Shown here: positions 50 to 11,934 of the stretch, in pieces | How positions within the stretch are numbered: position 1 is the stretch's first letter | How the letters are laid out: every line of letters begins with the position of its first letter | Virus genome (UHGV): UHGV-0122175 | Source of the DNA: a virus | Strand: one strand, 5' to 3' | Length of the DNA stretch: 35,613 nucleotides | Translations under genes and position numbers: made by a program | Notes under the pieces: model-generated | The model's input: the letters and a program-made list of their open reading frames with translations, nothing else | What the model was told of the DNA's origin: nothing | Databases searched by the model: none

Positions 50-1042
50 CTAATCGATGGACAGTTTATGGACACTTTCAGCCAGCGGATTAAAGTTGAT
101 CGCGTCCTGTAAGAAGTCCGGCGAAAAATGAGCGTACGTCATTGTTTGCTGAATCGTTGCGTGCCCCAGGATTCGTTGCAACGTAACAATATTTCCGCCA
201 TTCATCATAAAGTGTGTGGCAAATGTATGACGCATGACATGCGTAGCCTGCCCCTTCGGCAAATCCGGTTTCACCTCCTGAAGAATCTCCCGGAACTTCA
301 GATAATCAACCTGATACAATAACCCCGTTCGACGGGTTTTAATCAGAGGCACGACCGAATCCGCCACAGGAACCGAACGGGATTTTCCGTTTTTGGTGTT
401 AAAGAACGTCACCCGGTTGCCAACGATATGCTCTCCACGTAGTTCCGATGCTTCACTCCATCGGGCACCAGTAGAAAGACACAGAATGGCAACACGACGC
501 GCATCACCCTCCAGTCGCTCAAGAAGCCGTTCAATCTCATCATCAGAAAGAAAGGCCATCTCTGTGTTCTGAACTTTCAGTTTTCGTATACCGCGTACAG
601 GGTTCGCGTTGTGAAAGACCTCAGCTTCAATCAGCACCGTGAACATGGTAGACAGTACGCATAAGTCACGATTAATACTGGACGGCATTAATCCGGCCTG
701 TAATTTCTCTGACCGATATTCAAGCATAAATTTTCGCGTCATCTGACTGGCGCGAGGATCTCCCATTTCACGAACAACCTTCCCTAGCCTAACCCTGTAG
801 CTATCCCCGTAAGCCTGATTACGCCCATCAAGCATCCACCACGCATCAAGCAGCTCTGATAATCGCCGCTGATCAGCTGGCTTAGCCTGCCATGGCTTGT
901 CATGAAAGTTCTGTAACACATACTTCTCAAACTCCTGAGCCTTTGATTTCAGGGCAAAGATTTTTCGAATCCGCTTTCCTTCCGCCCCCTGCGGTCTGAC
1001 ATCGACCTGATAACGTCCGTCTTTGAGTTGCTTAATCGACAT
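50..1042 (-). CDS. int: Phage integrase, tyrosine recombinase (P2 Int-like)
   Basis: 330-aa ORF at the left edge, immediately downstream of the repressor gene on the same strand as in P2 (C then int). C-terminal region (HVMRHTFATHFMMNGGNIVTLQRILGHATIQQTMTYAHF) fits the tyrosine-recombinase catalytic domain. Confidence 0.9.
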   Translation of the reverse strand: MSIKQLKDGRYQVDVRPQGAEGKRIRKIFALKSKAQEFEKYVLQNFHDKPWQAKPADQRRLSELLDAWWMLDGRNQAYGDSYRVRLGKVVREMGDPRASQMTRKFMLEYRSEKLQAGLMPSSINRDLCVLSTMFTVLIEAEVFHNANPVRGIRKLKVQNTEMAFLSDDEIERLLERLEGDARRVAILCLSTGARWSEASELRGEHIVGNRVTFFNTKNGKSRSVPVADSVVPLIKTRRTGLLYQVDYLKFREILQEVKPDLPKGQATHVMRHTFATHFMMNGGNIVTLQRILGHATIQQTMTYAHFSPDFLQDAINFNPLAESVHKLSID

Positions 1043-1111
1043 GATTAGCCCCTCTAACGGATAAATTAACTAAACACTCCTTGCGATATGTAATTCGCTC
1101 AATGTGTAGAG

Positions 1112-1453
1112 TCAGCCAACATTGCGGCCTGATCGGGGTGATTTTTGGGTAATACCGATTGAAACCTGATCGCCCTCCGACTGAATAGAGCCATCAAGAG
1201 AGAGAGCCGGAGCAACCTGCCCGGCAGCGGGAAATGTTTTGTCGTGAAGTATCCACATAGTGTATTTTTCGAATCGCTCGACTTGGATTACTTTTTCTAC
1301 AACCTCAATGCGCGCAGGTTTATATCCAGACTCATAATTTCCTATAGTCCCTACAGAAACCCCCGTTACTTGCGAAAACTGAGATTGTGTAAGTTTTTCC
1401 GCATTTCTGATCGCCTTTAGTTTTTTGGCGTAATCTCTTGACATGTTCACCAT
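1112..1453 (-). CDS. C: Immunity repressor, P2 C-type (HTH)
   Basis: 113-aa ORF with a helix-turn-helix (LTQSQFSQVTGVSVGTIGNYESG). The tail (FEKYTMWILHDK...GQVAPAL) resembles P2 C as I recall it. It is divergent from the Cox-like gene. The true start may be the internal Met at codon 4. Confidence 0.75.
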   Translation of the reverse strand: MVNMSRDYAKKLKAIRNAEKLTQSQFSQVTGVSVGTIGNYESGYKPARIEVVEKVIQVERFEKYTMWILHDKTFPAAGQVAPALSLDGSIQSEGDQVSIGITQKSPRSGRNVG

Positions 1454-1556
1454 ACGATGAGTATCCTCTTTTTACTCTTCACCACAGGGTGAAGAAAACA
1501 AACCAAAACAAACCATCACAAGGCGCAACAAGCGCACCAACGCAAGAGGATAACAA
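1454..1556. promoter_or_regulatory. Divergent early/immunity switch region (Pe/Pc-like) with operator-like repeats
   Basis: 103-bp gap between divergent C and cox-like genes. Contains an inverted repeat CTTCACC-acag-GGTGAAG (1477..1494) and a tandem direct repeat AAAACAAACC x2 (1495..1514). An AGAGGA ribosome-binding site precedes the ATG at 1557. Confidence 0.45.
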
Positions 1557-1862
1557 ATGCGGGACTTCATTGCCGATAAAGAGTTATCTGACCACCAACC
1601 ACTTCAGGAAAGTGACGCACTCAGCGGATCCATTGATGCCGCCAACGACGACGAACACGAAGAAAACAAGAAAAAGCGTTCCTACAAAAAAGGAGCGACT
1701 TTACGGCTGGATGGTCCGATCGCCGGGCTTTGCTCTCTGGAAAAAGGCGCGGCATATATTGGGCTAACAAAATCTGCACTGCGCGTAGCCATTCATCGCG
1801 GTCAAATGCCGGGACACAAGACGCGCACAAACCCGGAAGATGAAAACTCAGACGGAGTATAG
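1557..1862 (+). CDS. Cox/excisionase-like HTH protein ending at an in-frame amber codon
   Basis: ATG with good Shine-Dalgarno sequence. Acidic N-terminal region, then an HTH (GAAYIGLTKSALRVAIHRGQMPG) resembling the Cox/Apl family. The frame stops at TAG 1860..1862 but stays open in the same frame to 2078 (WFNAKEWDKLADELPEHEPPEWHNW...). Confidence 0.5.
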   Translation: MRDFIADKELSDHQPLQESDALSGSIDAANDDEHEENKKKRSYKKGATLRLDGPIAGLCSLEKGAAYIGLTKSALRVAIHRGQMPGHKTRTNPEDENSDGV

Positions 1863-2082
1863 TGGTTTAACGCCAAAGAGTGGGACAAGTTGGCTGATGA
1901 GCTACCAGAGCACGAGCCCCCAGAATGGCACAACTGGAAAAGTTACTGGACGTATGACCGCCAGAAAAGGAAGTTCTCTCCAGCTAATAAAGAAGACTGC
2001 CAGACCATTAACGGTAAGCGAGTTTATACAGGCAGAAGCTCAAAACTGAACCAACTCAGAAACAACAGAGGCAACTAATCGT

Positions 2083-2505
2083 ATGAAAACAAACACGTCA
2101 GATTTCACAATAACTATTTCAAAAAATGACCAAGCATTAATTGATAACCTGAAATACCTTGCGGAAAAACATAATAACGGACGAATTGCAATTAATTTAC
2201 GACACATCACAGGAGTAACAATTGTAACCAGTTACTGGCATCTATATCTAATCGCTAAATCAGTACTGGAAAACAAAGATTCTGTTGTCAATGGAAGAGA
2301 TGTAGATACTCTTCCTGCACAAATCAAACCGATAGCCTATCAATTGCGTAATCGTTTTAAAAATGAAGGTGGGATTATATTTGACTTTCCCGCAGCTGTA
2401 GCCGTGAGCTTCTCTCGGGAGGATATACTTCACTCATTTCGTTTTGCTCTATCAGGTGACGAGACATTATGGCAGCTAGAAGATGCCGGGAGCAGCCCGG
2501 CATAA
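2083..2505 (+). CDS. Hypothetical protein (AT-rich accessory gene)
   Basis: 140-aa ORF in a markedly AT-rich stretch, unlike the phage backbone. A long ORF in AT-rich DNA is unlikely by chance. No family recognised. Confidence 0.55.
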   Translation: MKTNTSDFTITISKNDQALIDNLKYLAEKHNNGRIAINLRHITGVTIVTSYWHLYLIAKSVLENKDSVVNGRDVDTLPAQIKPIAYQLRNRFKNEGGIIFDFPAAVAVSFSREDILHSFRFALSGDETLWQLEDAGSSPA

Positions 2506-2511
2506 ATCAAA

Positions 2512-2703
2512 TTAAAAATCAACCAGTTGTGTGACAGGTGGGTATTTACGCTGAATTTTGTCAGTTACTAACGCCAGTAATATATGAATCTCTGCGTTTA
2601 ATGCGTCTTTATCACCCGTCGTTTTTACCCTAGGAGGGTTAATGTTATCCAGAGCAGCACTAAGGTCACTCAACAAATTAACAACTTTTTTATCTTCTGA
2701 CAT
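2512..2703 (-). CDS. Hypothetical small protein, convergent with the preceding ORF
   Basis: 63-aa ORF, AT-rich. Its stop lies 6 bp from the stop of the 2083..2505 ORF, so the two transcripts would overlap tail to tail. Confidence 0.4.
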   Translation of the reverse strand: MSEDKKVVNLLSDLSAALDNINPPRVKTTGDKDALNAEIHILLALVTDKIQRKYPPVTQLVDF

Positions 2704-2838
2704 GAAAACCTCTAAACAATTTAATTAAACATAAGCCAGGACCTGAACCGGCCAGTCCAAGTCCTAGACACACAAAAAATACCACAAATCAATACAAGGT
2801 GACACGAGTACACCTTACCGAAGGTACAGAGTTTTAAT

Positions 2839-3189
2839 ATGAAACTACAGCGCAATTCTTCACAGCAGCGCTTCCGCAACGGTGCGGAACGCCATGCTAA
2901 CCGTTTCGCTACCAGTGCATCACGTAGCAACTCTCGCTACAGCCTGAGCGAAACACACGCAACGCCGGATGGCTACCCCGTAAAACAAATCGGCGAGCAT
3001 ACCTGGCTGATTGAGAAAGCCGGAATCGTGGTCCACAAATGCCCGCGAAATCCGTTTACCGAAAACCGCATTTTTGCGCTGAGCAGCGGAGACAATCAGT
3101 TCGGACAGGATTTCACATTGTACGAAGCACTACGCACGGTTGATCGCCTGCTGCGTGGACAGAGTTTTATTAAACAGGCTGATTTATAA
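2839..3189 (+). CDS. Hypothetical early-region protein
   Basis: 116-aa ORF, first gene of a co-directional early cluster. No family recognised. Confidence 0.55.
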   Translation: MKLQRNSSQQRFRNGAERHANRFATSASRSNSRYSLSETHATPDGYPVKQIGEHTWLIEKAGIVVHKCPRNPFTENRIFALSSGDNQFGQDFTLYEALRTVDRLLRGQSFIKQADL

Positions 3190-3199
3190 CAGGTGCTTT

Positions 3200-3487
3200 A
3201 TGACTAAAGAACATACTCAGGGTGTATTTATCCGCTTTATTGATTTTCGCGGTGAACTGTTATTACGCGCATCCGCTATTGATGGAGTGGCTCCGGCGGG
3301 GAGAAACGGAACCGCTGAAGCCACTTACGTTTATCTGAACGGCACTCGACTGCTTGTGGAACTTCCGTACCAGAGCGTACGAGAAATCATTAGCGAAGCT
3401 GAAAAGGCACGTCAGGTTAATGGCGATAAACCCTATATCGAAATTATTTGTATGGATTCAGAAGCAGAAATCCAGAAGGCAGATTAA
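3200..3487 (+). CDS. Hypothetical early-region protein
   Basis: ATG at 3200 preceded by AGGTG (MTKEHTQGVFIRF...). Follows the previous stop by 10 bp. Confidence 0.55.
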   Translation: MTKEHTQGVFIRFIDFRGELLLRASAIDGVAPAGRNGTAEATYVYLNGTRLLVELPYQSVREIISEAEKARQVNGDKPYIEIICMDSEAEIQKAD

Positions 3488-3497
3488 AGGGCGTGCG

Positions 3498-3740
3498 ATG
3501 GACAAAGAATATAAAGCTCTCGTCAATAAAGCACTTGAGCGTTTTCATTTTCGCTTAAACACATCAGGGCTTCACGCCGAACACGCAGCCCATGATTCAT
3601 TAGCAAGGGCAATCAGAAGCCTTTATGACGTGGCCTTTTACGCTGACGATTTGGATGCAATTAACGAACTTTCCGAACTCGTCTGCGCTGCAGAATGCGG
3701 GGATCGCATTGAACCATATAAACTGGGGAATATCGCATGA
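3498..3740 (+). CDS. Hypothetical early-region protein
   Basis: ATG at 3498 preceded by AAGGG (MDKEYKALVNKALERF...). 80 aa. Confidence 0.55.
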   Translation: MDKEYKALVNKALERFHFRLNTSGLHAEHAAHDSLARAIRSLYDVAFYADDLDAINELSELVCAAECGDRIEPYKLGNIA

Positions 3741-3850
3741 GTATATTTATGTCATGGATTGTTCTGATTATTTCGGTGGCCTGCGCAATCGGGATTATGC
3801 GAATTATTCATTCAGTGAAAAAGATTGAACGCTTTTTCACTGGCGAATAA
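3737..3850 (+). CDS. Small hydrophobic membrane peptide (37 aa)
   Basis: ATGA start/stop overlap with the upstream gene suggests translational coupling. GGGGAA lies 7 nt upstream. Sequence MSIFMSWIVLIISVACAIGIMRIIHSVKKIERFFTGE has one predicted TM helix. It is below the ORF-track size cut-off. Confidence 0.45.
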   Translation: MSIFMSWIVLIISVACAIGIMRIIHSVKKIERFFTGE

Positions 3851-3943
3851 CAGAGCAAATAAAACACCAGATTAAATAAGAAAACGTGAAAACCATCCGA
3901 ATTAGCGGAGGCATTCACACACGTAAATAATGGAGATACAAAA

Positions 3944-4354
3944 ATGAACGCAAAAGAAAAAGGCATTGTAACTGCGCTAAAAAATATATCGAAGACCGCA
4001 AACAAAGCCATTCAAGATGCAACAAATGCAGGAATGATTGGGCCTGCCACCACAGCCATGATGATAGCAAGAGTAACCGCCGAAGCAGCCGAAATTATCG
4101 AAAAACAGGATGCTGAACTAACGGTTCCCAGAACACAACCAGTCACCGGACTGGATTTGTCTAACACCGGACGCCTTATTTACACAATTGGCTCGGAGCC
4201 ACAGCAATACACCATTATCGCCGGATTACAGGATAAATACTTGATCACTCCTCACCCCATAAGGGAATCAGAAATTCTGACAAATCTCCGCCTGATAGAG
4301 CGCTCTCAAGTCGCATTCATTGATGGCGCGCAACGTGCCGTATTTAACGCATAG
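3944..4354 (+). CDS. Hypothetical early-region protein
   Basis: 136-aa ORF with GGAGA ribosome-binding site. Confidence 0.6.
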   Translation: MNAKEKGIVTALKNISKTANKAIQDATNAGMIGPATTAMMIARVTAEAAEIIEKQDAELTVPRTQPVTGLDLSNTGRLIYTIGSEPQQYTIIAGLQDKYLITPHPIRESEILTNLRLIERSQVAFIDGAQRAVFNA

Positions 4355-4377
4355 GGCTATTGGGCAAAGAGAGCGTA

Positions 4378-4581
4378 ATGGCAATTAAGCATTTTCCCGT
4401 CGTTCGCTTTACCTCCAGAGGACGCGAATACGAGGTCGACGAACGCCTGATTACCACTATCGACAAACACCGTTCAGAAAAGGATGCACATCACATCTAT
4501 CTCACTGACGGCACTTACTTCTGCGCCACGAATGTGGTGCGGGTGAACCTTATCCGACAGGCACAGGAGTCACGCAGATGA
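4378..4581 (+). CDS. Hypothetical early-region protein
   Basis: ATG at 4378 (MAIKHFPVVRF...) with AGAGAG upstream. Its stop overlaps the start of the next gene (ATGA). Confidence 0.5.
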   Translation: MAIKHFPVVRFTSRGREYEVDERLITTIDKHRSEKDAHHIYLTDGTYFCATNVVRVNLIRQAQESRR

Positions 4582-4823
4582 CCATTCTGGACTACATCGC
4601 TGCCAATCCGGGTTGTAGCGGTGGAGAAATCGCCGCAGCACTGAATACCCCAACCACAGCCATTAATGCGGAGTTACGCCGACTCTGGCGCGGCGGCTTA
4701 GTCATCAGAGAAGAACGCAAAACAGGCGGTCGGTTCTCTTACCAGGTAAACCCGATGCCGTTCGGGTGTGGCAACCCACTTACTCACATGTTTAACCAGC
4801 TACTGAAGGAAGCCAGAGCATGA
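4578..4823 (+). CDS. Putative winged-helix DNA-binding protein
   Basis: 81 aa, MTILDYIAANPGCSGGEIAAALNTPTTAINAELRRLWRGGLVIRE, a pattern typical of small winged-helix regulators. Translationally coupled to its neighbours. Confidence 0.5.
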   Translation: MTILDYIAANPGCSGGEIAAALNTPTTAINAELRRLWRGGLVIREERKTGGRFSYQVNPMPFGCGNPLTHMFNQLLKEARA

Positions 4824-5119
4824 GCACCATCAACCACCAGGAACTACGCGAACTGGCGACTGACCTGCAACGAATGGCAACGCATCAAAAATTACTGGCG
4901 TTTCGCGCAATGCTCTCGCCGTCTGCTGTGCTGGCACTGCTGGATGAGCTGGAGCACGCCAGAACCATGGCTCCAGCCATTCGCCTGACGCTCCATCATG
5001 AAATCGCTGATTTCTGCGCGACGTTGGAGGCGCCGGGCGAACCGGAAACGCCGGAAGCAATACAGCAAGAGCTGCTGCAACGCATTGACAAGGTTTTTGA
5101 TTTTTTTCTGAACCAGTAA
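4820..5119 (+). CDS. Hypothetical early-region protein
   Basis: 99-aa ORF, start overlaps the upstream stop. Predicted helical. Confidence 0.55.
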   Translation: MSTINHQELRELATDLQRMATHQKLLAFRAMLSPSAVLALLDELEHARTMAPAIRLTLHHEIADFCATLEAPGEPETPEAIQQELLQRIDKVFDFFLNQ

Positions 5120-6116: not shown

Positions 6117-8939
6117 ATGACGGCAGAGTACATCAGGGACTGGCAGCAACCGCGCCACGCAGTGGGGCGTGAAGGAACGGGGATCCCCGCTCCTGAATCC
6201 GCGCTTTCCTCCTGGCTGGATGCCTACCGGGTAGAGAACGAACGCCGCCAGGAAATGGCTGATGCGGCGTTCTCCACCACGCCGCTGGGCAACCTGATTA
6301 ATAAAAGCCTGGACGCACAGGAAAAACAGGACAAAACCATCACACTGGCAGGAGACGCCAGAAAACAGGCACGCGGCGCGGTGGATGAAGCCATGGCCTC
6401 GCTGCGCCTGCTGCCGTCCTATCTACGCGATCCGCTTATTCGCCACCTCTCCTTCCTGCGCAAAAAACAGGAAGCCGATCGCCGGAAAGGCGAAAAGAGC
6501 TGGCAGGCGGAGCGCTATGCACGCGGAACCCTGCGCAAAATATTCGAACGTCTGGATCGCACTGACGGACGCTGGCTGACACCGGGGTATCGCTCCCTTG
6601 CCGGACGCGAACACCTGGACGATTTGCTGTACCTGCCGCAGCTCAACAAACACCAGATACAGACGCTGGCCACCATGACGGCGGCGATGTTCAGCAGCAC
6701 CTTCGAAAAACTCTGCGATGGCTTTGGCGCGACTGATGGCGAACTGACCATGGATGTAACGCTGAAGGCGTATCAGATGCTGGCCCGCATGGCGTTACAC
6801 CTGCACGCCATGCCTCCACATTATGACGCACTGACAACAGACAAAGACCGGAGGAACGAACCGGACACAGAGCTGCTGCCGGGCGCAATCCTTCGCCTGA
6901 CCTGTGCGGAATGGTGGAAACGCAAACTGTGGCTGTTACGTTGCGAGTGGAGAGAAGAACAACTCCGCGCCGCCTGTCTGGTTTCCAGAAAAACATCGCC
7001 CTATCTGAGCCAGGACGCGTTAAGCGAGTTTCGCGCACAGCGCGAGAAAACACGCGATTTCCTGAAAAGTTTCATGCTGGAAAATGAAGACGGGTTCACG
7101 ATTGATCTTGAGACAGTGTATTACGCGGGAGTAAGTAACCCGGTTCACCGTAAGGCAGAAATGATGGCCACCATGAAGGGGCTGGAACTTCTGGCCGAAG
7201 CCCGTGGCGACAAAGCGGTGTTTCTGACTGTCACCTGCCCGTCAAAATACCACGCCACAACAGAGAACGGTCATCCGAATCCCAAATGGAACGGGGCCAC
7301 CATGCGCGACTCCAGCGATTACCTGGTTAACACGTTTTTTGCGGCGGTCCGCAAGAAACTGAACCGCGACGGCCTGCGCTGGTATGGCATCCGCACGGTG
7401 GAGCCTCACCATGACGGCACCGTGCACTGGCATATGATGGTCTTTGCTCATCCGGAAGAAATCGACACCATTGTGTCCCACACCCGCGATATTGCCATTC
7501 AGGAAGATCGTCACGAGCTGGGCGATGATATTACTCCGCGCTTTAAGGCGGAGTATGTCGACGGCTCAAAAGGCACGCCAACCAGCTACATCGCCACCTA
7601 CATCGGAAAAAACCTGGACAGCCGCGCCGTGGATGGCATCGACCCGAAAACGGGCAAGCCACGCGTTGACCACGAAACCGGAAAATCAATGGCCGAGAGC
7701 GTGGAGCGCGCCATCGGCTGGGCGCGCCTTCACCGGGTCCGCCAGTTCCAGTTCTTTGGCATCCCCTCCCGTCAGGTGTGGCGTGAACTGCGCCGCCTTG
7801 CCAGCCAGATGGCACGCAACCCGGAAGGCCCGCAACGGCTGAAGGATGACGCAATGGATGCAGTGCTCGCTGCCGCTGATGCCGGGTGTTTTGCCTCCTA
7901 CATTGAAAAACAGGGCGGCGTACTTGTTCCACGCAAAGACTACCTGATTCGCACCGCCTACGACCTCGCAGATGAGCTGAACGATTACGGCGAACAGAGC
8001 GTACAGATTTACGGGATCTGGTCACCACTCATCGGGGAGTCTTCCCGTGTGTGCACACATCCGGATAACTGGAAGCTGGTAAGACGTAAACCGGAAGCGG
8101 AAGACAGCGCCCGCGAAAATGGTTTTGACCTTCAGGGCGGCCCTGCCGCCCCTTGGACTCGTGGCAATAACTGTCCCCGTGTACAGGAAACGGACAACAA
8201 CGGGACAGAACAGCCGGAAGAACGGCCAGCACCGTGGCCGCAGCTCCCTGACGGCGTTGAAGTGAACGAATGGATGCGCTCACTGAAACGGCACGAACGC
8301 CGGGCGCTGATGCGTTCGCTTCGTGACAAACAGGCAAAAAACAGCCGTGATGAAATGCAGAGCTGGACACAGAGCCGCAAACAGCAGCGGCCTTTGCCTG
8401 ATAACCACGAACTACTCGCTAAAGAATGGCGGGAGTCTGCTGAATCTCTCGGCCTGCATATCGGTGAACAGCAGATGCAGCACCTGTTACGGGGCGGCAG
8501 TCTGTACGTTGACGGCAGCAACATTGCACCGCAGGGATTTGAAATTGTACGCAAACCGGATACCCGACCGGACAGCCGGATCACGCAGCTCTGGCAGCGC
8601 CTGAGCCGTAACCACGGCGTAAGCAGTACGGAGATCCGCCATAACCCGGTCGCCAGCTATCTGGAACAGCTGGGGACATCAGACCCCGAAGCCGCCGCAC
8701 GCCTGGCATCCACACTTCAGCAAGACCAGAACACCATGAAAACACCCGTTACCGTGCTTTCTGACATGCTGCGCGCCATCCGCGACGCAGAGCACGCACA
8801 GAGAATCAGTGAAACCACTGAACGCGCCCGCCGCAAAGCAGACCTGCTGCGGGGTGGCCTGACCAGTGGAAACAAAAAACAGACAGAAACGGGATTCACA
8901 AATCCCGTAAATGAGCAAAAAACGCGCCGCGATATATGA
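6117..8939 (+). CDS. A: Replication initiation protein A (rolling-circle, HUH-type nickase)
   Basis: 940-aa ORF at the end of the early operon. Contains a His-hydrophobic-His motif (TVHWHMMVFAH) and a paired-tyrosine motif (YIATYIGKN) characteristic of phiX174/P2 A-type initiators. Confidence 0.85.
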   Translation: MTAEYIRDWQQPRHAVGREGTGIPAPESALSSWLDAYRVENERRQEMADAAFSTTPLGNLINKSLDAQEKQDKTITLAGDARKQARGAVDEAMASLRLLPSYLRDPLIRHLSFLRKKQEADRRKGEKSWQAERYARGTLRKIFERLDRTDGRWLTPGYRSLAGREHLDDLLYLPQLNKHQIQTLATMTAAMFSSTFEKLCDGFGATDGELTMDVTLKAYQMLARMALHLHAMPPHYDALTTDKDRRNEPDTELLPGAILRLTCAEWWKRKLWLLRCEWREEQLRAACLVSRKTSPYLSQDALSEFRAQREKTRDFLKSFMLENEDGFTIDLETVYYAGVSNPVHRKAEMMATMKGLELLAEARGDKAVFLTVTCPSKYHATTENGHPNPKWNGATMRDSSDYLVNTFFAAVRKKLNRDGLRWYGIRTVEPHHDGTVHWHMMVFAHPEEIDTIVSHTRDIAIQEDRHELGDDITPRFKAEYVDGSKGTPTSYIATYIGKNLDSRAVDGIDPKTGKPRVDHETGKSMAESVERAIGWARLHRVRQFQFFGIPSRQVWRELRRLASQMARNPEGPQRLKDDAMDAVLAAADAGCFASYIEKQGGVLVPRKDYLIRTAYDLADELNDYGEQSVQIYGIWSPLIGESSRVCTHPDNWKLVRRKPEAEDSARENGFDLQGGPAAPWTRGNNCPRVQETDNNGTEQPEERPAPWPQLPDGVEVNEWMRSLKRHERRALMRSLRDKQAKNSRDEMQSWTQSRKQQRPLPDNHELLAKEWRESAESLGLHIGEQQMQHLLRGGSLYVDGSNIAPQGFEIVRKPDTRPDSRITQLWQRLSRNHGVSSTEIRHNPVASYLEQLGTSDPEAAARLASTLQQDQNTMKTPVTVLSDMLRAIRDAEHAQRISETTERARRKADLLRGGLTSGNKKQTETGFTNPVNEQKTRRDI
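8889..8908. repeat. 20-bp palindrome ACGGGATT-n4-AATCCCGT (copy 1, inside the 3' end of A)
   Basis: Perfect 8-bp inverted arms, read directly from the sequence. Confidence 0.6.
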
Positions 8940-9015: not shown

Positions 9016-9975
9016 ATGAAAATTTGTATCGATGACGGCTCCACCAACATCAAGCTGGCATGGACTGAGAACGGCGAACGCCGCAACGCCATCAGCCCAA
9101 ACAGCTTCAAGTCGGAATGGTCTGCGCCGTTCGGTGGCACGCAGCCCGCGAACTACATGCTTGATGGCGTGCGCTATGGTTTTGATCCGGTCAGCGATCG
9201 CTTTGTCCAGACGACCGACACGCAATACCAGTACAGCGATGTGAATGTCATTGCCATTCATCACGCGCTGGTCAAATCAGGCATCACACCACAGGAAGTG
9301 GATGTGGTTGTCACCCTGCCACTGAGCGAATATTTCGACACAAACGCACAGCCGGACATGGCCAACATCAACCGCAAAAAAGCGAACGTTATGCGCCCGG
9401 TGGAGTACCAGAACGGCGAAGCATTCACTATCCGTAACGTGCGGGTTATGCCTGAATCCATTCCGGCTGGCTTTAAGGCACTGGCTGACATGAGTCCGTT
9501 TGAATCCCTGCTGATTGTGGATTTGGGCGGAACCACGCTGGATGTGGCAAAGGTTCAGGGGCAACTGGCAGGTATCAGCCAGGTGTTTTGCGATCCACAC
9601 GTAGGCGTTTCTCTGATGGCCGATGCCGTACTGTCGGTGATGGCCACTAACGGTATGCGCACCAGTCACCACATCGCCAATACCATTATCGAACATCGCC
9701 ATGATGAAGCCTGGTTGCGCCAGCACATCCACAATGACGCGCATTACGCCAGCCTGATGGCGGTTATTCGTGAAAAGGAAGAAACACTGAAACAACGAGT
9801 GATCCGCGCGCTGGCGGGGTTTTCGGGTTACGGGCGGGTGATGGTTGTCGGTGGCGGGGCGGAGATTGTGGCACCCGCTATCCGCGAAGCCTGCGGAGTT
9901 AATGCGACTTTCATCGCGGACGGGGTGCCACAGTTTGCTCTGGTTAATGGGCTGTACGCAATGGACAAGGAGTAA
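9016..9975 (+). CDS. parM: Actin-like segregation ATPase, ParM/StbA family
   Basis: 319 aa. N-terminus MKICIDDGSTNIKLAW closely matches the plasmid R1 ParM N-terminus as I recall it (MLVFIDDGSTNIKLQW). Also has the actin-fold phosphate motif IVDLGGTTLD and C-terminal VMVVGGGAE. Strong AAGGAA ribosome-binding site. Confidence 0.8.
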   Translation: MKICIDDGSTNIKLAWTENGERRNAISPNSFKSEWSAPFGGTQPANYMLDGVRYGFDPVSDRFVQTTDTQYQYSDVNVIAIHHALVKSGITPQEVDVVVTLPLSEYFDTNAQPDMANINRKKANVMRPVEYQNGEAFTIRNVRVMPESIPAGFKALADMSPFESLLIVDLGGTTLDVAKVQGQLAGISQVFCDPHVGVSLMADAVLSVMATNGMRTSHHIANTIIEHRHDEAWLRQHIHNDAHYASLMAVIREKEETLKQRVIRALAGFSGYGRVMVVGGGAEIVAPAIREACGVNATFIADGVPQFALVNGLYAMDKE

Positions 9976-9979
9976 ACCA

Positions 9980-10294
9980 ATGACGACTCCAACCAGACGG
10001 ATAAGTTTCTATCTGAAGCCAGCAGCCGTCAAGAGTGAACGAGAAGCGTGTAATTATCTCGACAGCCTGCCAGCCTCCGAACGCAGCCGCGCGCAACGCG
10101 CGGCATTTCTGGCTGGACTGGCGCTTATTAAAAGCGATCCCGCCTTTGCTTACTGGCTGGCTGAATGGCAGGAAGAGGAAGCAATACCACCAAGAAATAA
10201 CATCCGAAACAAGCATACTGGCACATCTGCAACAGAAAACAGTCACAGTAAGAGCCAGTTAAAAAGGAACATTCAGGAGTTTTTCCCAGAATAA
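9980..10294 (+). CDS. parR: ParR-like centromere-binding adaptor
   Basis: 105 aa from ATG 9980, with AAGGAG upstream, directly after parM. The segment YLDSLPASERSRAQRAAFLAGLAL resembles R1 ParR (LDSIPQGERSRLNRAALTAGLAL, from memory). Confidence 0.65.
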   Translation: MTTPTRRISFYLKPAAVKSEREACNYLDSLPASERSRAQRAAFLAGLALIKSDPAFAYWLAEWQEEEAIPPRNNIRNKHTGTSATENSHSKSQLKRNIQEFFPE

Positions 10295-10603: not shown

Positions 10604-10882
10604 ATGGGTATAAAGATTTGTAAAAACTCCCACCGATACAACCCCCAATACTCACACCTTCCCGATAACCAGGGACAGACAGGCCGCCACCGCTGCGCTG
10701 CCTGCGCATACGAGCTTGGTGTACTTCACGCAATGATCGGTATTCCTAAAGCTAAAGATGATTCCTTCCTGGCAAATATTCCATATAGCCAGGCTGGCAC
10801 AGTCAGACATAAAGACGCCTTTGAGGCATACATGCTTGGGTACGACTATGCAATGAGCAGCGCACTGCTCAAAGCTGCATAA
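10604..10882 (+). CDS. Hypothetical protein (orphan gene 1 in the A-Q hotspot)
   Basis: 92 aa, GAGGT ribosome-binding site, lower GC than the backbone. Contains a Cys/His cluster (CKNSH...HRCAAC). No family recognised. Confidence 0.5.
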   Translation: MGIKICKNSHRYNPQYSHLPDNQGQTGRHRCAACAYELGVLHAMIGIPKAKDDSFLANIPYSQAGTVRHKDAFEAYMLGYDYAMSSALLKAA

Positions 10883-10948
10883 CGATTTCTGCTTTTTCAC
10901 CACCTCAACAATAGTTGGAGAGGTGGTTCTTCTGAAAAGGATAATCAA

Positions 10949-11236
10949 ATGACCGATATTAAAAGAAGCGATTTATTTTATGACGATTACAGTTGGACTG
11001 CTTTGCCAGGAGATGATCCCACGAAAACCGCTGCTGACCGCCATCGGTTTAGCCGCAAAGAGGGTTATGAAGTACTAAATATGCTTAATTCCTTTAAGGC
11101 ATACTCCCTGAAAGAGAAACTCATTGTCGAATGGATGATTCACGAACACTTACCATCAGGTATTCAGGGAAGGGAAAATGTTAAAGACTGGATTAAACAA
11201 AACTTCCTCAAATTCAAGTTAATTTATCCACGCTGA
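10949..11236 (+). CDS. Hypothetical protein (orphan gene 2 in the A-Q hotspot)
   Basis: 95 aa, AAAGGA ribosome-binding site, AT-rich. Separated from gene 1 by an 8-bp stem hairpin (10899..10927). No family recognised. Confidence 0.5.
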   Translation: MTDIKRSDLFYDDYSWTALPGDDPTKTAADRHRFSRKEGYEVLNMLNSFKAYSLKEKLIVEWMIHEHLPSGIQGRENVKDWIKQNFLKFKLIYPR

Positions 11237-11532
11237 CTGAATATCAGAGAATGAAACCCTGAACGGGCGCACAAACGAAACGAGCGTGCCATGCCCGACG
11301 CACATACAAAGGCGGAGATGCACTCTCCGCCTCATAGTGGTTAACGCATTTAGAAAACATCAAATTTGTCAAACAATCTTTCATATTAACCCCTCCAGAT
11401 TCAAACACACTCTGGGATTGTTGTTAGCTAGTCACTGGGATTTTGCGTTTATAGTTTCACCTCGCCCAATCCACTGAAATTTTTAGTCAACTCAAGCTAA
11501 CGCGCGTGTTAAATATATGCTCATTTTCAAAC

Positions 11533-11560
11533 TGCACAATAGTGCACAAATTTGCACAAT
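11533..11560. repeat. Three phased direct repeats of TGCACAA
   Basis: Copies at 11533, 11543 and 11554, about one helical turn apart, in the non-coding region beside the portal gene where cos is expected. Confidence 0.5.
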
Positions 11561-11934
11561 TTTTTTGAACGACTTTTTGCCCTTCCGGCCCGCATGGCGG
11601 CTGGATCCGTCAGGGATCCGTGCGTGCACAAAAAAACGCGCTTTTTCTGCGCGCAGGTGACGGGGGAACAGCCCGCGTTTCAGGGGGTAAATAGCATTCC
11701 CTGAACGATGTCGCAGAGATACAACAGAATGGCTGTCTTTCTCACGCTGAGCGTGAAAAAGACGTGAGGGCTTTTGATTTGATGGGGTGGCAGATAAGGC
11801 CGTCAAAATCGCACTGAGGCGGCGAGAACATGCAGTCAGCGCGATGGGATTGCGTAAGAGCCTGACCGCCGATGATGGCAATAAGCTGGAAGGCGTCGTG
11901 AAATTATCTGATTGATACAGGAGCTGGAGAGTCG

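Follow-up and report, generated by a model that had tools for sequence, protein, structure and literature searches.

The stretch of DNA analysed here, UHGV-0122175 (35,613 nucleotides, hereafter the window), represents an entire prophage of the P2 family and the P88/Xuanwuvirus type. It is integrated adjoining dmsA, and its near kin are prophages in UTI89, NU14 and strains of sequence type 131 (ST131) of Escherichia coli. Between its cox-family regulator gene (1557-2078, + strand) and the DUF4761 gene (2839-3189, + strand; Pfam PF15958, E = 1.4e-69), with which the conserved early genes of the backbone begin on the right-hand side, lies a pair of convergent genes, and it is this pair that I consider. 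On the left is ORF140 (2083-2505, + strand), an open reading frame (ORF) encoding a 140-amino-acid (aa) product of a new family whose members run from 137 to 163 aa. On the right is ORF63 (2512-2703, - strand), encoding an acidic 63-aa protein with homologues in the equivalent convergent position. The genes of the two families will be called big and small, respectively. Between the stop codons of ORF140 and ORF63 there are just 6 nucleotides (nt), ATCAAA at 2506-2511, as a first-pass annotation of the sequence had described. The low guanine-plus-cytosine (GC) content it had remarked upon is equally real: 2083-2838 has a GC of 0.384 against a window mean of 0.527 and is the lowest-GC 756-nt stretch in the 35.6 kb (the standard deviation of 756-nt windows is 0.051, and only 0.1% are equally low).

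The start of ORF140 follows the cox stop by 4 nt and is preceded, at 11 nt, by AGAGG; neither a promoter nor a terminator is predicted on the + strand anywhere in 2083-2838. Being so close to cox and lacking any promoter-like site, ORF140 is presumably read together with cox from an early promoter-like site, TTGACA-18-TATCCT (1438-1467, + strand), which I take to be Pe. In a sigma-70 scan this site is the top match within 1000-4500, at 10 of 12 positions. The early promoter of P2-type switches opposes the repressor gene, and the presumed Pe does likewise. ORF63 is provided with a Shine-Dalgarno sequence, AGAGG at 2709-2713, 5 nt ahead of its ATG. A scan gives no canonical intrinsic terminator between the two genes or at either stop, again in agreement with the earlier description. 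There is an 8-bp GC-rich hairpin within the last ORF140 codons (ATGCCGGG-AGCAG-CCCGGCAT, 2484-2504), read from the sequence and folded on both strands, which the terminator scan does not list; it is not a canonical terminator, since it has no U-tract on either strand. As the 3' ends of the genes abut with no terminator at the stops, the two transcripts are likely to overlap there, and Pe and the putative ORF63 promoter, discussed below, would face each other across about 1.3 kb.

Both ORFs prove to be genuine genes, kept tail-to-tail under purifying selection. The distant relatives of ORF140, found by a full HMMER scan, belong to E. coli and Salmonella P2-like prophages with different repressor/cox types, and seven diverged versions retain the tail-to-tail order. 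In contigs of distant relatives, a 137-149-aa gene on the strand of the early operon is followed by a convergent gene of 60-63 aa, and in diverged copies the spacing of the stop codons varies, from an overlap of 4 nt to a gap of 6 nt. Among the large proteins, aligned identity is 16-35%. The small ones are 33-42% identical and share invariant M1, D4, K6, L11, L18, I21, P24 and K-Y-P; the conserved features of ORF63 are M-x-x-D-x-K...L-L, a proline-containing loop and K-Y-P. The ratio of nonsynonymous to synonymous substitution rates (dN/dS; Nei-Gojobori, unsaturated pairs) is 0.16-0.32 for the big gene and 0.07-0.34 for the small, and the divergences of the two track one another. Full-length homologous frames, combined with dN/dS far below 1, mean that both genes are real and that they have travelled as a unit.

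The linkage between the two families is strict in one direction. Each small gene found has a big gene on its left, and among the loci found there is none without that neighbour. Big genes occur in other settings as well: with a different leftward partner of 78 aa (locus L043), as tandem paralogues (L116, where the second copy lies at 4524-4955), and as a fusion, protein P0016 (L098, 5001-5678), in which an ORF140-type domain is joined to a C-terminal domain common to a 259-aa protein of L096. The tandem and fused occurrences suggest that the ORF140-type domain is modular and adaptor-like.

The two families are confined to a narrow range of hosts. No member beyond E. coli and Salmonella was found in 5.8 billion clustered proteins, in 1.84 billion representatives (HMMER) or in IMG/VR, and two scans of a one-genome-per-species collection gave no family member. 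A scan of metagenome contigs recovered E. coli-type copies only; a phage collection contained three E. coli records only, and Salmonella-type queries matched none of it. Within E. coli the pair varies by only 7 substitutions and one 2-nt indel, too few differences to show whether the ORFs are genes.

In keeping with the suggestion that the pair is an insert between cox and the early genes, relatives of the P88 type join cox straight to DUF4761. The interval is 37 bp in phage P88, and the direct junction recurs in four other locus clusters. I surveyed the slot through 95 fetched loci anchored on DUF4761. Across them the interval is empty or holds a + strand 68-aa membrane ORF, a pair of the ORF140/ORF63 type, or other cargo; the pair is present in 11 of the 80 DUF4761-anchored loci from IMG/VR. 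In L026, one of the clusters with the membrane ORF, the start of the repressor and the cox family resemble those of the window. Had all related phages carried the pair here at the GC of the backbone, there would be no reason to speak of an insert, but in most of them the slot is empty or otherwise filled, and orthologous cassettes have a GC of 0.36-0.45. Among 5426 complete E. coli genomes, 270-272 have the pair, 311 have the cox type of the window, and 1378 match the early block that begins with DUF4761 (2839-3740). Where the slot holds something else, this is most often a conserved gene of 67-68 aa on the + strand, whose product has hydrophobic segments (MTSNITSAILDLVFLEVG...); it is found in the L003 cluster (27 loci), the L026 cluster (7 loci) and L044.

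Comparison with relatives that lack the insert also gives its boundaries. On the right, P88 homology resumes at 2832. The prophage at L005 (E. coli PRO_A-1504, its attachment site likewise next to dmsA) is without a 688-bp segment, 2076-2763, that comprises both genes and most of the 5' hairpin of the predicted ORF63 transcript. By blastn, window positions 2075 and 2763 map to one L005 base, a 1-nt microhomology, and the junction has cost the L005 cox its stop, so that it reads directly into the segment 2764-2838 and gains 13 codons. That segment, retained in L005 and not homologous to P88 up to 2832, forms the cassette's promoter side and reaches up to the start of DUF4761. A second, independent deletion has removed 495 bp (2179-2673) from L130, fusing 32 ORF140 codons to the antisense of the first ORF63 codons. 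Both deletions lie in otherwise near-identical prophages. The variable slot and the two independent deletions mean that the pair is accessory and dispensable for prophage carriage, and the cassette fits the class of morons and accessory genes by its presence or absence among collinear relatives and its deviant base composition. Other truncated variants were considered as a natural knock-out test of a toxin-antitoxin relationship and were set aside, most of them being contig ends or error-prone assemblies. In L126 the C-terminus of ORF63 may be frameshifted with ORF140 intact, to go by a single short-read assembly.

It had been supposed that the downstream early genes need a promoter of their own within 2721-2838. 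That expectation failed: no + strand promoter or terminator is predicted there, and what the 135-nt gap between ORF63 and DUF4761 (2704-2838) offers instead is a leftward motif. This is an extended -10 match, TGTGGTATTTT (TGn + TATTTT; 2776-2786, - strand), with a weak -35-like GTGTCA at 2800-2805 and a spacer of 18 nt between. The motif in the form TGTGNTATNTT has a single match in the whole window, counting both strands, where 0.16 would be expected. Of the 12 leftward genes examined, 11 have TGTGnTATnTT at a distance of 76-83 nt before their ATG, although their leaders and cargo are otherwise unrelated or cannot be aligned.

If the motif is a promoter, the mRNA of ORF63 would begin with a 5' leader of about 66 nt (2704-2769, - strand), a length predicted from where the -10 motif lies. 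Folding gives, right at the start of this predicted transcript, a stem-loop of 14 pairs (2736-2767, - strand), which needs G-U pairs and so folds better on that strand. A hairpin after the -10 motif recurs in every small-gene leader folded (L096, L098, L111, L116 and L030), in sequences that are unrelated. Stem-loops at the 5' end are known to stabilise mRNA, and I infer by analogy that this one may do the same. Furthermore, one near-identical leader of about 140 nt runs up to the start codons of three cargo genes that are unrelated to each other: in L030 a member of the small family, in L043 a 78-aa gene and in L032 a 155-aa gene. My reading of these sequences is that the slot has a resident leftward platform, a putative promoter and its leader, whose cargo is exchangeable. 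The shared leader lies to the left of the DUF4761 start and is partial in L044, and recombination breakpoints fall at the start codon of the cargo. In the loci that share it, a GC-rich hairpin (GCCGGG...CCCGGC), followed by a T-run, closely precedes the -10 motif, where it might serve to insulate the promoter.

It is natural to ask whether the leftward motif belongs to the immunity switch. No word of 7 nt or more is common to the Pe/Pc region and the region of the ORF63 promoter, and by eye there is no convincing LexA box. Since the cassette is found with at least five repressor/cox types and no operator-like words are shared, it is not part of the switch.

Neither protein can be recognised by family, as the first-pass annotation had already judged: Pfam, NCBIfam, PADLOC and PHROGs give nothing above noise for the two proteins, for other members of their families or for the neighbouring cargo, and PADLOC-DB 2.0 in particular has no component that matches ORF140, ORF63 or the cargo proteins nearby. 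Profile searches of the PDB found no match for family members, and Rfam, at a permissive threshold, nothing relevant. One hit, to DUF1408 (E = 0.007, below the cut-off), was rejected, as it is absent in other family members. Both proteins have a negative grand average of hydropathy, isoelectric points of 4.5-6.4 and no hydrophobic or membrane segment. ORF140 itself is soluble and slightly acidic, with an isoelectric point of 6.4. Being soluble and acidic, the two are poor candidates for DNA-binding proteins or for a membrane toxin. An AlphaFold2 model of ORF140 (predicted local distance difference test 59, predicted template modelling score 0.54) suggests a helix-hairpin-helix topology present twice. 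In the literature the protein accessions and locus tags are not mentioned, and no described system of such design was found.

One complication in delimiting ORF140 should be mentioned. In L004 (2758-3423) and in most ST131-type copies, an alternative frame over the 3' half of cox is open into ORF140, giving an ORF of 221 aa. This corresponds to 1840-2505 in the window, where it is closed by a TGA at 2047-2049, and it accounts for a 144-aa UniRef variant, P0002. It is probably an artefact of ORF calling, not an N-terminal extension.

The antisense-controlled toxin or exclusion module of which the first-pass annotation was reminded may hold, but neither protein resembles a known toxin. The standard forms of toxin-antitoxin system were tried on the pair and fit it poorly. 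Type II systems are co-directional operons, and all seven versions of the pair are convergent; nor was there found a ribbon-helix-helix, helix-turn-helix (HTH), AbrB or Phd antitoxin or any known toxin superfamily. Type I systems have a small hydrophobic membrane toxin, and neither protein qualifies.

I propose, tentatively and at somewhat less than an even chance, that the pair is a two-state cassette of the moron type, in which ORF63 is on in the lysogen, ORF140 is on in the lytic cycle, and the two proteins act on each other. Its actual transcription, the interaction of its proteins and its biological role would then be as follows. Leftward transcription of ORF63 would start at an extended -10 sigma-70 promoter belonging to the gene itself and pass through the stem-loop leader, so that the protein should be made in the repressed prophage. 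ORF140, with no promoter of its own and downstream of cox in the Pe operon, would be made only upon infection or induction. Strong transcription from Pe would shut ORF63 down, the lysogen would express ORF63 only, and the exclusivity of the two states would be reinforced by convergent transcription and by the 3' antisense overlap. The two small acidic proteins may bind directly, one neutralising the other. If so, then the activity of ORF63 in the lysogen, most likely the exclusion of other phages or a modification of the host, would be cancelled by ORF140 in the lytic cycle.

Several observations weigh against this proposal. The divergences of the two genes could track one another through physical linkage alone. 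In E. coli the family, a narrow one, is mostly clonal, with 2-3 haplotypes in 270 genomes, so that conservation within that species says little. The promoter of ORF63 is, so far, a motif in the sequence with a weak -35. The structure model of ORF140 has low confidence and finds no fold match, and no defence, anti-defence or toxin-antitoxin model matches either protein. Finally, if L126 is real, the C-terminus of ORF63 can go while ORF140 stays intact, which argues against ORF63 as an essential antidote and has no bearing on other roles.

The polarity of the interaction may be the reverse. ORF140 could be a harmful early protein of host takeover and ORF63 a constitutive inhibitor that protects lysogens from leaky transcription of Pe; were ORF63 the less stable of the two, the pair would double as an addiction module for the prophage. 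I consider this unlikely; the reverse polarity as such is nearly as good as the one I favour. This rival calls upon the same expression anatomy and the same strict linkage, the inhibitor never being found apart from its target, which does occur alone (L043, L116), and both natural deletions (L005, L130) take away the two genes together. The asymmetry of the linkage fits either polarity, and a chance deletion of 500-700 bp in a locus of 620 bp would usually strike both genes. Moreover, the genes are convergent and not co-directional, neither a DNA-binding domain of an antitoxin nor a fold or motif of any known toxin was found, ORF140 is acidic, soluble and without catalytic signature, and L126 apparently combines a frameshifted ORF63 with an intact ORF140. 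A further possibility is that the two genes share a slot and have no functional link: ORF140 would be an early-operon gene of some kind (anti-defence or host takeover, for example) and ORF63 an independent gene for lysogenic conversion. The slot does accept many cargoes, its leftward platform serves unrelated genes, and the big gene of L043 has a different leftward partner. But it is a good deal to expect of two unrelated accessory genes that they should remain neighbours, their orientation unchanged and their stops abutting, while diverging to about 20-45% identity and on different backbones, with no small gene found that lacks its big neighbour, and I regard this as rather improbable.

About as improbable, to my mind, is a device acting at the level of RNA or of transcription, with the proteins secondary, in which leftward antisense into ORF140, cox and Pe damps early transcription and stabilises lysogeny, on the model of pE in phage 186 or OOP/paQ in lambda. 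An untranslated antisense RNA would probably be halted by Rho. What is conserved, furthermore, is ORF63 as a protein, to judge from its dN/dS and its invariant residues, and not the leader or the DNA sequence, and the same promoter platform carries unrelated protein cargo. The cassette is found with several unrelated immunity types, and relatives that lack it are ordinary temperate phages. On the other side, the promoters are convergent at about 1.3 kb, no - strand terminator is predicted from 2512 to the repressor gene, and L005 and L130 retain the promoter motif despite the loss of genes; phage 186 provides a documented case of transcriptional interference between promoters that converge (PMC5001618). 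As for the notion that the ORFs are spurious, AT-rich non-coding filler read as genes, it draws on database annotations that say only 'hypothetical protein' and is refuted by full-length frames kept in both families at about 20-45% identity with dN/dS well below 1; it is scarcely worth entertaining.

How would the proposed two-state cassette compare with systems already described? Among the closest are the prophage morons (Hendrix-type; old, tin and fun(Z) of P2; neaT in CFT073 phi-b0847; PMC3573123), which it resembles in its presence or absence in syntenic relatives, its deviant low GC, its dispensability and in having one gene, ORF63, with a putative promoter of its own, oriented against the lytic operon. 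Published work backs the general frame only: genes that run antisense to lytic operons from promoters of their own are typical accessory loci (PMC7067206). The differences are that the cassette has no terminator of its own, no canonical intrinsic one following either ORF140 or ORF63, that one of its members sits in the early operon, that the ORF63 promoter appears to be resident in the slot and reused by different cargo, and that its site, between cox and the early genes, is neither A-Q nor G-FI, the classical moron positions of P2 (PMC3573123). Of the P2 defence systems recognised so far, 8% lie in the interval from integrase to primase (PMC13586616).

In its proposed logic, that of a lysogen activity neutralised during the phage's own lytic growth, the cassette recalls BstA/aba (PMC8585504) and SieB/Esc of P22, with no similarity to either in sequence or fold. 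The self-immunity of BstA is a DNA element and Esc is an internal translation product, whereas in the cassette an early gene in its own right, on the opposite strand, would be the neutraliser. The convergent, overlapping 3'-end transcription in a prophage operon, with its potential for mutual repression at the RNA level, is reminiscent of hok/sok, lambda OOP-cII and STnc6030 of BTP1 (PMC7067206), the same study having found that antisense RNA alone is able to exclude phages. Unlike in those modules, both partners here are conserved proteins, neither is a small hydrophobic toxin, there is no Rfam match, and the overlap is predicted only from read-through beyond the stops. Lastly, a leftward promoter opposing an early promoter, with interference plausible, is a feature of the switches of P2 (Pe/Pc) and of 186 (pR/pL and the CII-activated pE; PMC5001618), from which the cassette differs in lying some 1.3 kb off, in sharing no operator-like words, in its association with several immunity types and in its absence from most relatives.

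The same plan recurs with unrelated proteins. In the Salmonella loci and in L032 and L043 there are pairs in which a rightward gene has a leftward gene abutting or overlapping its 3' end, with sizes of 259/103 (L096, 5766-6804), 225/103 (L098, 5001-5937), 260/168 (L116, 5754-7068), 91/155 (L032, 174-903) and 163/78 aa (L043). All of these except L043 and L032 have the motif in the form TGTGyTATGTT. In the first four of them the 3' overlap reaches as much as 53 nt, TGTGnTATnTT is found 76-82 nt upstream of the leftward gene, and the proteins have no family match. These pairs may amount to a class of convergent cassettes, hitherto undescribed, in the early part of P2-family prophages, each joining an early-lytic gene to a leftward gene driven by the platform, with convergent transcription making the expression of effector and neutraliser mutually exclusive, ORF140/ORF63 being one family among them. 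I consider so general a scheme doubtful.

The prophage that bears the cassette is present in about 5% of complete E. coli genomes, including the extraintestinal pathogenic strains UTI89 and JJ1886 and other ST131 isolates. Whatever its function, it contributes two new protein families, absent from Pfam, PHROGs and the defence databases, together with a putative promoter platform that can be reused. If the state switch proposed above is true, then P2-like phages would have a third accessory slot beside the two classical moron positions, their portable leftward platform could be used to locate cargo expressed in lysogens by sequence alone, and the pair would be a compact case of convergent transcription that couples a lysogen function to a lytic-phase antidote. 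If the pair has no phenotype, it is one more orphan moron.

Some features of the surrounding prophage remain to be described. To the left of the slot, the early region has an integrase gene (50-1042, - strand), an HTH repressor gene (1112-1453, - strand) and then cox; to the right, DUF4761, DUF4754 and other conserved early genes extend to a replication gene at 6117-8939. The cox-family gene, 173 codons long in relatives, is interrupted in the window by an in-frame amber codon, TAG at 1860-1862 (TGG to TAG, W102*), which divides it into ORFs of 101 and 62 aa; each half matches phrog_23196, a family of transcriptional regulators. The gene is unbroken in UTI89, JJ1886, ETEC4077 and L005, and the W102* allele was found in none of the complete E. 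coli genomes in the collection, the best match being 99.8%. This copy of the prophage may have a defect in the lytic switch or in excision.

The prophage of JJ1886, which is of the ST131 type, has no match to 1286-1497 of the window, while the flanks are 98-99% identical. The missing stretch is the N-terminal (HTH) half of the repressor plus the Pe/Pc region. By annotation only, the repressor of UTI89 is a different protein from that of ST131 (it was not compared with that of the window), and a repressor of the window's type is carried by L043 and L026. Immunity specificity appears to have been swapped through recombination within the repressor gene.

Apart from the cassette, one other stretch of the window has a GC below 0.42: 10801-11597, just upstream of the portal gene, with small ORFs (10604-10882 and 10949-11236) that have no Pfam match. 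The hotspot between the replication gene and the portal is occupied, at 9016-10294, by a gene for an actin-like ParM/StbA protein (319 aa, PF06406 and PF21523) and then by a ParR-like Plasmid_stab_B gene. An integrated P2-like prophage here carries a partition system of the plasmid type at the place where defence cargo usually resides.

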